DNA from: an uncultured Acidobacteriota bacterium
Lineage (GTDB): Bacteria > Acidobacteriota > UBA6911
Length of the DNA: 64,000 nucleotides
Assembly (NCBI GenBank): GCA_963843575.1
Contig: CAWJKZ010000025.1
Span: forward strand, 282,319-346,318
Reading direction: 5' to 3'
Within the stretch, counting starts at the first letter, position 1. Each line of letters starts with the position of its first letter. The translations under genes and the position numbers were made by a program. This document shows positions 18,345 through 20,608 of the stretch, one piece after another. The notes beneath the pieces are model-generated. The model ran no database searches and was not told the DNA's origin. It worked only from the letters and a program-made list of their open reading frames with translations.

Positions 18345-19106
18345 ATGAACTACGGAAAGACGAAGGTGGTTGTCTGCAGGGACGAGTTCGAACTCGGCCG
18401 CCGGGCGGCGTCGGATGTCGCCTCCAGGGTCAGGGAGTTGCTCGCCCTGAGGGATGAAGTCCGGATCGTCTTCGCCGCGGGGGAAAGTCAGGTGACCTTT
18501 CTCGCCGGCCTGGCCTCCGAAAAGGACATCGACTGGACCCGCGTCGTCTGCTTCAACATGGACGACTTCTACGACCGGACCCTGCCGGAAGAGTTCACCT
18601 GCGGCCACCAGACCCGGACCCAGCTCTACGACAAGGTCAAGCCCAGGGGCGCGCACCTCGTCCGCTACAACGCCCCCGACCCCGAGGCGGAAGCCCGACG
18701 GTTCGAACAGGTGCTGCGGCAGGCGGGCCCCATCCATGTCCTTTGCCAGGGGATCGGCACTTCCGGCCACCTGGCGCTCAATGAACCCTACGACACCGAT
18801 TTCCTGGACAGCAGATGGGTGCGGGTGGTCTCGCTCGCAGAGCAGTCCAAGATTCAGCTCAGCGAGGATCCGAACTTCAAGGCGCTGGGCTATATCCCCT
18901 CCACCGGCATAACCATCACCATCCCCGCCCTTTTAGCCGCGGAGAACACCTTCACCATGGTGCCGCTGCGTCTCAAGCGGCCCATCCTCGAGAGGCTTTT
19001 TGCCCTCCGCGAGCCCACCGAGGCGCTTCCAGCCTCCGTCCTGCTCGAGGTCGAAGGGACGCTCTACCTCGATCGGAACTCCTGTCCCGAGGAGCTGCAG
19101 GCTTGA
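18345..19106 (+). CDS. Glucosamine-6-phosphate deaminase / 6-phosphogluconolactonase family protein
   Basis: FAAGESQ, IDWTRV.CFNMDDF, GIGTSGHLALNEP, ITITIPALL. Confidence 0.85.
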   Translation: MNYGKTKVVVCRDEFELGRRAASDVASRVRELLALRDEVRIVFAAGESQVTFLAGLASEKDIDWTRVVCFNMDDFYDRTLPEEFTCGHQTRTQLYDKVKPRGAHLVRYNAPDPEAEARRFEQVLRQAGPIHVLCQGIGTSGHLALNEPYDTDFLDSRWVRVVSLAEQSKIQLSEDPNFKALGYIPSTGITITIPALLAAENTFTMVPLRLKRPILERLFALREPTEALPASVLLEVEGTLYLDRNSCPEELQA

Positions 19107-19116
19107 CCCTCACGAG

Positions 19117-19198
19117 GGGCGCCTCGGCGCCCCCGCCAGACCGAGGTTGCAGCGTCGCAAGCTCGCAATTCGGCGTGGCGCCGAGGCGCCGCACTCCA
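19117..19198. repeat. REP-like family B copy between convergent genes
   Basis: GGCGCCTCGGCGCC ... GGCGCCGAGGCGCCGCACTCCA. Confidence 0.8.
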
Positions 19199-19225
19199 GG
19201 ATCGATCATTAAACACCGTGATGCC

Positions 19226-19723
19226 CTAGTCCACCTCTGCCAGCTTCCCCGTTTGCACGTCGTAGATGAATCCCCGGATCGGGATCTCCTGCGGGATCCA
19301 GGGATGCGATCGAGCGCGCTCGACCTGAAGGCGAACATCCGCTTCCAGGTCGGAGAAGCTGTGGAACCGCGTCGGAGCCACCGCGGCGTGTCCGGTCTTG
19401 CGCCTCAGGTCCGCCTCCAGCTTGTCGTCGGTGAACGTCAGCATGCCGCAGTCGGTGTGGTGCACGAACATGAACTCGTTCGTCCCGAGCAGGTAATGGG
19501 AAATGAGCAGCGACCGAACCGCGTCTTCCGTGAGTATCCCGCCCGCGTTCCGGATGATGTGCGCTTCACCGGTCTTGAGCCCGAGGATCTGCTCAATAGT
19601 CAGACGGGCGTCCATGCAGGCGACTACGGCCAGCTTGCGGGCAGGGGGCATCTTGAGGTGCCCGAGTTTGAACTGGCTGGCGTAAATGCCGTTCGCACGG
19701 ACGGCTTCGTCGATGACAGTCAT
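19226..19723 (-). CDS. Beta-class carbonic anhydrase, clade D (Rv1284/CanA-like; possible COS hydrolase)
   Basis: VVACMDARL, AHIIRNAGG, HHTDCGML zinc ligands, RGFIYDV.TG.L; AAAGGAG RBS; 165 aa. Confidence 0.92.
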   Translation of the reverse strand: MTVIDEAVRANGIYASQFKLGHLKMPPARKLAVVACMDARLTIEQILGLKTGEAHIIRNAGGILTEDAVRSLLISHYLLGTNEFMFVHHTDCGMLTFTDDKLEADLRRKTGHAAVAPTRFHSFSDLEADVRLQVERARSHPWIPQEIPIRGFIYDVQTGKLAEVD

Positions 19724-19749
19724 GCTTTTCTCCTTTCGAAAACAACGGC

Positions 19750-19786
19750 AAAAAAAAACCCGCCGCCGGAAGGACCGGAGACGGGC
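19750..19786 (-). terminator. Intrinsic terminator in the 5' leader of the carbonic anhydrase (attenuator)
   Basis: Minus strand CCCGTC-T-CCGG-TCCTT-CCGG-C-GGCGGG followed by T9, 26 nt upstream of the start codon. Confidence 0.85.
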
Positions 19787-19815
19787 TGGATTCGAACCAA
19801 AATCGATCCTGAGCG

Positions 19816-19896
19816 TCACCCCCCGGGCAGGTAGAGTTCGCCACAGCTACAACAGATGCAGCTCAGCAAACCCGCCATGAAGGAGGAACAACCCAT
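19816..19896 (-). CDS. Cys-rich leader peptide MGCSSFMAGLLSCICCSCGELYLPGG (putative attenuator uORF)
   Basis: 26 aa, 5 Cys (4 within CICCSC), ends about 30 nt before the terminator stem. Confidence 0.75.
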   Translation of the reverse strand: MGCSSFMAGLLSCICCSCGELYLPGG

Positions 19897-19903
19897 GGCC
19901 CTT

Positions 19904-19931
19904 ATTCTAACGTAAGCGTGAGAGATTACAA
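19904..19931 (-). promoter_or_regulatory. Sigma70-like promoter TTGTAA-N16-TAGAAT, 7 nt before the leader-peptide ATG (leaderless)
   Basis: -35 at 19931-19926, -10 at 19909-19904, ATG at 19896. Confidence 0.65.
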
Positions 19932-20052
19932 GGCGGCGACGACAGATAATTGCGCCGGCATGCGCGGCTGCGGATGGGCCGGAGGCGCGCTCCATTGATC
20001 GGCTGCTGAGCGGCAAATTCGATCCCGAACAGCCTGGTGCGGCGGCCGTTTG

Positions 20053-20175
20053 TGGAGTGCGGCGGCTCGACTGGCTCGACTCCGCTTTGGTGGCGGCGCC
20101 TCGGCGCCCCCAAAGGCCGAGGTCGCAGGGTCGTATTTCGGAATTCGGCGCGGCGCCGAGGCGCCGGGCACTCCA
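20053..20175. repeat. REP-like family B copy with internal GGCTCGACT duplication
   Basis: Matches the 8449 and 25690 elements. Confidence 0.85.
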
Positions 20176-20308
20176 GATCACTTCAGGTCGTCCGGATTGA
20201 ACGTCAACCGTTGGACAGCCTCTGAAGCCGGACCGCACTGCCCGCGTCCAGCCCTCTCGGGTTCCAACCGCCGGCCGCGCCGGGACCTCCATCCGGTCTT
20301 TCCCGCGA

Positions 20309-20608
20309 TCAGTCGGATTCCGGATACTTGTGGCACAGGACGCAGCTGACGGCCGTTCCCTTGGGCAGGCTGATACGCTTGCCCTGCGACGTTTCGCGGC
20401 AGCCGGCGCTCTCGGAGCATTCCAGGAGGCGGTTCGCGGCGGTGCGGGCCAGCGGCGAACCCTGGAGTTGGGCTCCGTGGCAGGCTTGGCACGTCCCCGC
20501 GGGAGTGCGACCGTCCTTGAACACTTCCTTGTGGTTCTGGTTCCACATCCGGTCGTTGACCGGGTGCATTCCGTGGGGGCCGCGCAGAAGGCCGGCGCTG
20601 TCGAACAT
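20309..20608 (-). pseudogene. C-terminal relic of a multiheme c-type cytochrome
   Basis: GPHGMHPV, CQACHG, CVLCHK; no signal peptide or upstream hemes. Confidence 0.6.

Follow-up and report, generated by a model that had tools for sequence, protein, structure and literature searches.

Why would a bacterium set a carbonic anhydrase (CA) gene behind a transcription terminator and a short open reading frame (ORF) crowded with cysteine codons? This question is raised by a cassette on the minus strand of a 64,000-nt stretch of the genome of an uncultured soil Acidobacteriota bacterium (G000, contig C25, 282319-346318; hereafter the window, to whose positions all locus coordinates refer), in which a promoter, a 26-codon upstream ORF (uORF), an intrinsic terminator and the gene for a clade-D beta-CA follow one another. 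The initial annotation interpreted this arrangement as a Cys-sensing leader-peptide attenuator controlling the CA, a reading that is supported by comparison with orthologous loci among 60 relatives and by the logic of the regulon in which the same device recurs. We propose, at a probability of roughly 0.7, that a ribosome-mediated transcription attenuator sensing charged tRNA-Cys gates this single-gene unit and places the CA in a sulfide-supply regulon.

Each element of the predicted cassette, from the promoter, ATG, Cys-rich uORF and small hairpin to the GC stem with its run of nine T (T9), the ribosome binding site and the beta-CA gene, was located base for base (Table 1). The promoter is the sole promoter-like site in 19000-20400, where shuffles of the region lead to an expectation of 0.1 on average. 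Its -10 region, TTACGTTAGAAT, is unique to the CA locus genome-wide and was for that reason rejected as a regulon-wide promoter signal. Judging from the promoter geometry, the leader mRNA is probably leaderless, with its start at or next to the uORF ATG. Cysteine occupies five of the 26 uORF codons (residues 3, 13, 15, 16 and 18, encoded by TGT, TGC, TGT, TGT and TGT), four of them within codons 13-18, and the consecutive pair Cys15-Cys16 inside C-I-C-C-S-C supplies the two or more adjacent Cys codons seen in mycobacterial polycysteine leaders. Among 1722 long ORFs of the genome with high GC content at third codon positions (GC3), Cys accounts for 1.1% of codons and TGT for 17% of Cys codons, compared with four of the five Cys codons in the uORF. 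The terminator hairpin alone folds at -19.9 kcal/mol (11+11-nt stem with one 1x1 mismatch), and the whole leader at -75 kcal/mol (z -3.18), an energy equalled by 1 of 200 shuffles. Since the T run lies a mere 26 nt from the CA ATG, and the scan of 19000-20400 found no promoter-like site between terminator and CA, expression of the CA must come from read-through. An ORF of 335 codons in frame upstream of the uORF we take to be non-coding, because of its GC3 of 0.62 (CA: 0.83) and the lack of any NCBIfam hit. A tRNA-like reading of GGTTCGAATCC was rejected, as ARAGORN detected neither a tRNA nor a tmRNA anywhere in the window, and Rfam returned two matches only, both far under their gathering scores (sR40, 20.7 versus 50 bits; anti-hemB, 13 versus 49.5 bits).

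Table 1. Elements of the promoter-leader-CA cassette, with window positions and proposed roles
Feature	Position	Strand	Details
Sigma-70-type promoter	19904..19931	(-)	-35 TTGTAA 19931-19926, 16-nt spacer, -10 TAGAAT 19909-19904
Leader uORF, 26 codons, MGCSSFMAGLLSCICCSCGELYLPGG	19816..19896	(-)	ATG at 19896, 7 nt past -10 box; stop included
Cys-codon run, codons 13-18	19843..19860	(-)	TGC ATC TGT TGT AGC TGT; proposed stall site
Antiterminator candidate 1, GGCGGGTTT	19868..19876	(-)	codons 7-10; complementary to terminator 5' arm
Antiterminator candidate 2, CCGGGGGGTGACG	19814..19826	(-)	uORF 3' end and stop; also pairs with uORF 5' part in minimum-energy fold
Small hairpin	19788..19809	(-)	GGATCGA-TTTTGGT-TCGAATCC
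Intrinsic terminator, stem GCCCGTCTCCGG / CCGGCGGCGGG	19750..19786	(-)	stem 19786-19759, loop TCCTT, T9 19758-19750
Shine-Dalgarno of CA gene	19730..19735	(-)	AAGGAG; precedes CA ATG at 19723
Clade-D (Cab-type) beta-CA	19226..19723	(-)	165 aa; Pfam Pro_CA

In the mechanism that we envisage, transcription would start at or beside the ATG of the leader ORF. With ample Cys-tRNA the ribosome would reach the stop codon, the GC stem with T9 would form 58 nt beyond it, and transcription would end 26 nt short of the CA start codon. With Cys-tRNA in short supply the ribosome would instead stall on TGC-ATC-TGT-TGT-AGC-TGT, freeing leader segments that are otherwise paired with one another (either GGCGGGUUU, 19876-19868, or the uORF 3' end) to hold the 5' arm of the terminator, whereupon RNA polymerase would read through and the CA would be made. 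Both the termination and the read-through step are deduced from sequence. The identity between the codon 7-10 segment and the terminator 3' arm, on which the first antiterminator option had been built, was confirmed for GGCGGGTTT at 19876-19868, which matches the start of that arm and its T run; the second candidate partner of the 5' arm is the leader segment CCGGGGGGUGACG (19826-19814).

We modelled the switch by folding transcripts cut before the terminator 3' arm, with a 28-nt ribosome mask set either on one of the Cys codons of the run, each in turn, or on the stop codon, and with a penalty on pairs closing tightly around the ribosome; being thermodynamic, these folds cannot settle kinetics. 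With the ribosome at Cys15 or Cys16 of the window leader, GGCGGGU (nt 21-27) pairs with the terminator 5' arm (21-27:111-117), and with the ribosome at Cys18 the uORF 3' end (nt 71-83) pairs with 8 of the 11 nt of that arm (71-83:112-122). In transcripts cut in this way, the 5' strand of the small hairpin can alternatively pair with the inner terminator arm and loop. The contrast between the stalled and the stop state is clean in three other leaders, those of the CA in the same-genus genome G001 and of the sulfite reductase (sir) and siroheme (cysG) genes of the window genome. The last uORF codons hold 12 of 13 nt of the 5' arm in the G001 leader when the ribosome is stalled at Cys and 0 of 13 when it is at the stop, and the stretch 3' of the Cys run holds 10 of 11 and 2 of 11 nt, respectively, in the cysG leader, and 10 of 12 and 7 of 12 nt in the sir leader, where the pairing at the stop is a local helix. 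Overall, the leader design fits attenuation, with the identity of the antiterminator helix ambiguous for the window leader.

Full-length CAs at 52-73% identity were found in five genomes among the 60 relatives, giving six loci with the window's own. The closest of these, from G001 (71%) and G011 (73%), form a clade with the CA of G000 (branch support 99), and all three members of this clade have the promoter, a Cys-run ORF whose start codon stands 6-7 nt past the -10 box, and a terminator. The -10 region of the orthologous leaders is conserved (TTACGTTAGAAT / TTACGTTATAGT), its distance to the start codon being 7 nt in the window leader and 6 nt in G001, G011 and a further locus, L044, and the hairpin and T run are kept in both orthologous CA leaders. 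At the same place the G001 and G011 loci encode the leader peptides MVGFLHDSGEWTVCCCRGRNPGEVGT and MSNVRCRRLGNHCCCCCGTNREDVR. The Cys run is the sole feature shared by the three clade peptides, which fits the prediction of selection on the codons rather than on the peptide.

If the leader senses cysteine, which other genes of this organism carry one? One rule demanded a -10-like box 4-9 nt ahead of the start codon, three or more Cys with CC among them, and T6 no further than 160 nt away; of 1960 candidate ORFs, 3 passed, and the CA leader alone has a stable hairpin. A whole-genome scan that dropped the promoter rule and sought Cys runs with a hairpin (-12 kcal/mol or lower) and T5 behind them returned 24 distinct small ORFs, and a third scan listed 240 Cys-dense ORFs outside high-GC3 frames genome-wide. 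The latter two lists share four ORFs, namely the CA leader, a divergent pair of leaders on contig C10 and an ORF of a repeat element, the overlap being judged by reading and none of the other 20 ORFs of the shorter list occurring among the 240. ORFs ending in ..SVAGCCSCI were rejected as leaders because they form part of this dispersed CACGGAA/TTCCGTG element, copies of which lie in G000 at C13:254893-254937, C13:169707-169751, C15:131415-131462, C14:861020-861055 and C10:97091-97117. By this overlap, the only Cys-run and terminator units in intergenic DNA besides the CA leader are those before the sulfite reductase/cysH and siroheme synthase operons.

The first of the contig C10 leaders (..MTGFACCCICRVPGNRSLVHETIEP, terminator -24.7 kcal/mol) precedes a NIR_SIR protein and then a PAPS_reduct protein, and the second (..MICACCCTLRGFRVAEGAV, terminator -21.1 kcal/mol) a protein with the siroheme-synthase N domain and then a TP_methylase. 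The NIR_SIR protein reaches no NCBIfam cut-off, and we call it a sulfite reductase because cysH adjoins it. The two operons diverge from a single 530-nt spacer (L111 6850-7330 = G000:C10:426850-427330) that holds the leader-terminator units back to back, a layout kept in G001. Among the relatives, a Cys-dense uORF and terminator precede 8 of 16 sulfite-reductase-like loci, seven of the eight in the window's family and one of the eight outside it; the exception within the family is a paralogue of 32% identity. So the window organism appears to use one Cys-leader device both for its sulfide-making genes and for the CA. In the sir leader peptides of L194, L196, L197 and L198, a GNRS/NRS motif stands a few residues after the Cys run, which hints at a constraint beyond the Cys codons, from peptide or RNA. 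The sulfite reductase gene of the same-genus genome (85% identity; L195, G001:C12:571619-573796) contains one in-frame TGA.

The enzyme itself is recognised by Pro_CA (PF00484; E 2.8e-13, 50.8 bits against a cut-off of 25.7) and has an intact zinc site, C36-x-D38-x-R40 and H89-x-x-C92, its motifs CMDAR at 36 and HHTDCG at 88 aligning with Rv1284. Its best solved relatives are Rv1284 (1YLK, 1e-45), A. fumigatus CafC (6JQC, 1.3e-42) and the carbonyl sulfide (COS) hydrolase of T. thioparus (3VQJ, 1.3e-42), the last matched in two pieces around an insertion in which 3VQJ residues 117-156 have no counterpart in the query. A weaker match to the CS2 hydrolase 3TEN (E 6.1e-27) covers query residues 25-102 only. 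CafC has been assigned to clade D, and Rv1284 and the COS hydrolases (COSases) are described as Cab-type; an additional loop of the T. thioparus COSase, Gly150-Pro158, narrows its substrate tunnel, and fungal COSases, without the loop, have tunnels that resemble those of Rv1284 and CafC (PMC12035519). By its best PDB sequence matches, the window CA would group with Rv1284, CafC and the COSase rather than with plant-type enzymes. The genome holds a second beta-CA-like (Pro_CA-like) gene (L193 1400-2400, G000:C14:230120-231120), with at least two frame changes and a long C-terminal extension, which looks like either a broken gene or an assembly error. An ORF upstream of it beginning MSCCSC.. was rejected as a leader, since it sits within the 3'-terminal part of the ORF before it and lacks a terminator.

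Is the coupling peculiar to this clade? We collected 80 CA loci from species genomes and 80 from metagenomes, and retained 154 with identity of at least 45%, a match start within the first six residues and at least 250 nt upstream, L153 having been dropped for mis-parsed coordinates. Under a strict rule of at least three Cys within six residues, in an ORF within 250 nt upstream, 10 of the 154 loci scored in sense and 2 in antisense orientation, while 20 dinucleotide shuffles averaged 1.15 (range 0-3). Of the ten, L188 was judged spurious; it was rejected as a leader together with L222 and a TTG ORF 198-266 nt upstream in L004, these having no Cys run or lying far upstream. Convincing loci comprise those of the window's own clade (three), L044 and L046 (Acidiferrales / Acidoferrum), the metagenome contig L119 (CCCC and a terminator), the actinobacterium L105 (..FCCCCN) and the pair L076 and L162 (..AVDxAGCxxCLC), joined by three Dormibacteria loci outside the strict rule, with a conserved ..LDHGCCGSAIC.., and by two of 29 additional loci taken from the Williamsia order (Mycobacteriales), with a conserved ..FDGWCC... 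In the metagenome set, L119 alone among the 80 loci has a convincing poly-Cys uORF with terminator; its Cys4 leader starts, by eye, about 90 nt past the 3' end of an apparent tRNA gene (..GGTTCGAGTCCC..CCA; upstream region ~1245-1320). Mapped on a FastTree phylogeny of the 154 CAs, the trait (12 rows) requires seven changes, four of them forced by well-supported branches, as against a mean of 11.7 with shuffled labels. The association of a Cys uORF with a CA therefore appears rare, at about one locus in ten, yet recurrent, with unrelated peptides in at least seven other lineages. Several of the units outside the window's clade have no terminator and resemble the mycobacterial, translational type. 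A DNA similarity search for paralogous leaders in a Dormibacteria genome returned chance-level short matches only.

Several observations weigh against the proposed attenuation and its generality. In the fold model the window leader lacks a clean switch: whichever state is assumed, 5-8 of 11 nt of its terminator 5' arm are paired, the partner for a ribosome standing at the stop codon being the mRNA 5' end, AUGGGUUG (1-8:109-116). Both antiterminator options of the initial annotation appear in ribosome-masked folds (at Cys15/16 and Cys18), but for this leader they bring no clean on/off contrast. The G011 leader is ambiguous as well, with 10 of 12 nt held at Cys and 9 of 12 at the stop. A consensus terminator rule, scanning the region, did not list the stem, for which the 1x1 mismatch may be the reason. 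Conservation of the Cys-rich uORF and terminator, complete in the window's own clade, does not extend to the orthologues of G008 (67%), G059 (59%) and G055 (52%), which have no Cys-run ORF upstream of the CA. Among sequencing runs, none of RNA was listed as containing the locus, and four DNA runs yielded nothing beyond short contigs of low depth. In one of these contigs, of 151 nt and from a soil metagenome run (X4, depth 3), the sole difference is A>T at position 19845 (plus strand), which replaces the TGT (Cys) of leader codon 18 by AGT (Ser) and may be a strain variant or an error. Across the wider collection, about 90% of clade-D CA loci are without a Cys uORF. The strict rule was picked after the results of looser criteria had been seen, and these gave 19 sense versus 14 antisense of 85 loci (CC or at least four Cys), 16 versus 10 of 158 (CC and at least three Cys) and, in a further loose comparison, 5 versus 4 of 32. 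Genomic neighbourhoods show no consistent link to sulfur, since upstream neighbours of the CA are heterogeneous (rhodanese 5, ThiF 4, thioredoxin 3 and TauE 2 of 141) and 0 of 27 same-strand downstream neighbours in Mycobacteriales belong to the PAPS_reduct or GTPase (sulfate activation) families. The adjacency of Rv1284 and cysD does not generalise to these 27 loci. Concerning the substrate, low-CA and high-CA enzymes of the clade are not separated by residue pattern or hydrophobicity (PMC12035519), and the fold is described as not deciding substrate preference; therefore, that preference is not callable from sequence.

An alternative keeps the same Cys attenuator but takes the enzyme for an ordinary CO2/bicarbonate interconverter needed in sulfur limitation, for example to provide bicarbonate as counter-ion or co-substrate when other sulfur sources are taken up or broken down (thiocyanate or cyanate chemistry), or for pH control. 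It draws on Rv1284, the closest solved relative, which is described as a good CO2 hydratase with high CA activity (PMC12035519), on the absence from the query of the loop specific to the T. thioparus COSase, and on the authors of the Gordonia (PMC11852219) and Rhodococcus (PMC13689224) studies, who read the CA induced by sulfur limitation as related to pH or CO2. We nevertheless think it rather unlikely. Loop-free fungal clade-D enzymes are good COS hydrolases with little CA activity (PMC12035519), and a general CO2 function fits poorly with a gene shut off in cysteine-replete cells. The two other attenuated units both serve sulfide production, and no SulP-type anion exchanger (SulP transporter) was found in the window genome, which is 88.34% complete.

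The leader could also act mainly on translation, in the manner of mycobacterial polycysteine ORFs, with the stem and T9 serving as a minor or constitutive partial terminator. Cys uORFs without a terminator do stand before CAs in Dormibacteria and several Actinobacteria, and the Shine-Dalgarno sequence of the window CA lies in a small local hairpin of the minimum-energy fold; however, in folds of the window leader the Cys tract pairs within the uORF and not with the Shine-Dalgarno sequence, and a strong hairpin with T run has been kept in the sir and cysG leaders as well as in each of the three orthologous leaders of the CA, which makes this explanation improbable. We give hardly any credence to the 26-codon ORF being a gene in its own right, for instance one for a Cys-rich peptide that binds metal or is modified, equipped with its own terminator and followed by a CA expressed through constitutive leak-through. 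Some CA-linked uORF groups do keep residues other than Cys (the Dormibacteria, ..AVDxAGCxxCLC.. and ..FDGWCC..), but the three peptides of the window's own clade share the Cys run only, an identical design precedes the sulfite reductase and siroheme genes, and no promoter-like site is available to the CA beyond the terminator.

Under the preferred reading, of a Cys attenuator acting on transcription, what would a CA contribute to a set of sulfide-supply genes? Hydrolysis of COS to H2S and CO2 is the most likely answer, at odds that we put somewhat below even. The COS/CS2-scavenging role proposed at the outset would agree with the regulon and with published work, but within the clade COS hydrolases and CAs cannot be told apart by any feature of their sequences (PMC12035519). 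In Trichoderma, COS assimilation through a clade-D COSase has been shown, with the role in bacterial heterotrophs called unknown, and E. coli given the Trichoderma COSase was examined for its ability to grow when COS was the only source of sulfur (PMC10880591). A CA of unstated class is strongly induced in Gordonia on dibenzothiophene versus sulfate (log2 fold change 5.2 in the proteome and 5.0 in RNA; PMC11852219), a CA of unstated class is likewise induced on dibenzothiophene in Rhodococcus (PMC13689224), and across seven soil metatranscriptomes the expression of clade-D beta-CA tracks the rate of COS uptake (r = 0.83; PMC6330096). The CAs induced in sulfur limitation are QGP89001.1 in Gordonia alkanivorans 135 and peg997 and peg5020 in Rhodococcus qingshengii IGTS8. 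Neither an alpha-CA nor a SulP transporter was found in the window genome at 88% completeness. A wider proposal, which we hold tentatively and at odds short of even, is that the clade-D beta-CAs of heterotrophic soil bacteria are COS-to-H2S enzymes wired independently to ribosome-based Cys sensors in at least four phyla. If true, the uptake of atmospheric COS by soil would depend on the cysteine status of its microbes.

A cysteine-type attenuator before a clade-D CA, with the same device at sulfite reductase and siroheme genes, provides a concrete, testable answer to the opening question, namely that the enzyme would belong to the sulfide-supply response, and offers a reading of the unexplained CA induction on poor sulfur sources in Gordonia and Rhodococcus. 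Literature searches on Cys leader attenuators in Acidobacteria and on COS or CA in bacterial sulfur starvation found no description of a Cys-attenuator-CA coupling, in agreement with the initial suggestion that it was undescribed. The attenuator would be a variant of a known mechanistic type; its coupling to a clade-D beta-CA is the new part. Cys-sensing leader peptides would also be extended by it to a terminator-based, probably leaderless form in Acidobacteriota, for which we found no describing paper.

Two further features of the surrounding DNA were recorded. A GC-rich, internally palindromic repeat with GGCGCCGAGGCGCC cores occurs in two copies, at 19105-19203 and 20053-20170, which lie on either side of the promoter-leader-CA cassette as direct repeats some 975 nt apart and look like a REP/MITE-type intergenic element. 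Between an amidohydrolase gene and the CA promoter, a 99-codon ORF (20309-20608, minus strand) has two CxxCH motifs (CQACH and CVLCH) and no Pfam hit, and could encode a small dihaem cytochrome c or be what is left of a gene.

How does the window leader compare with known systems? Enterobacterial amino-acid operons are preceded by the leader-peptide attenuators trpL, hisL, leuL and thrL. With these it shares a short ORF rich in codons for the sensed amino acid, an intrinsic terminator and alternative pairings of the 5' arm (see also the introduction of bioRxiv 10.1101/834739); it differs in that it would sense cysteine, is probably leaderless and without a Shine-Dalgarno sequence, has an ambiguous antiterminator, and controls a CA-family enzyme instead of a biosynthetic enzyme for the sensed amino acid. 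Closer in geometry are the cysteine-responsive polycysteine leaderless ORFs of mycobacteria, such as Ms5788A, which act on translation, in a preprint that states that uORF-mediated attenuation for cysteine had not previously been described (Canestrari et al., bioRxiv 10.1101/834739). A search of the main text of that preprint found neither 'carbonic' nor 'anhydrase'. Leaderless geometry, adjacent Cys codons, a response to cysteine and a separate Cys uORF at every locus of the regulon are common to the mycobacterial system and, as proposed, to ours. The mycobacterial system is translational, its Cys tract pairing with the Shine-Dalgarno sequence and no terminator being involved, whereas the window leader, from another phylum, has a Cys tract that pairs inside the uORF and a Shine-Dalgarno sequence in a local hairpin beyond the terminator, and so lacks the mycobacterial Shine-Dalgarno pairing.

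Two groups of leaders upstream of cysteine genes are similar in other respects. The uORFC-8-2 motif before cysS in Rhodobacterales places a tandem-Cys uORF in a stem followed by an intrinsic terminator, and has been read as a Cys-tRNA attenuator (PMC8632094); compared by description, it differs from the window leader in its target, a cysteinyl-tRNA synthetase, in its host group, the Alphaproteobacteria, and in being a conserved RNA motif. In Actinobacteria, Cys leader peptides were predicted before cys/cbs operons, where that study found no terminators and left the mechanism open (Seliverstov et al. 2005, PMC1262725). Those leaders, like ours, are short upstream ORFs in which Cys codons form runs close to the stop; unlike ours, they have cysteine synthesis genes as targets. 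As for the enzyme, the window CA shares with Rv1284, CafC, the Trichoderma and Gloeophyllum COSases and the T. thioparus COSase the Pro_CA fold family, the Cys-Asp-Arg / His-Cys zinc site and a length of about 165 aa, and differs from the T. thioparus enzyme in missing the extra loop. COSase activity in Trichoderma is described as constitutive (PMC10880591), whereas the CA gene of the window stands behind what appears to be a cysteine-type attenuator.

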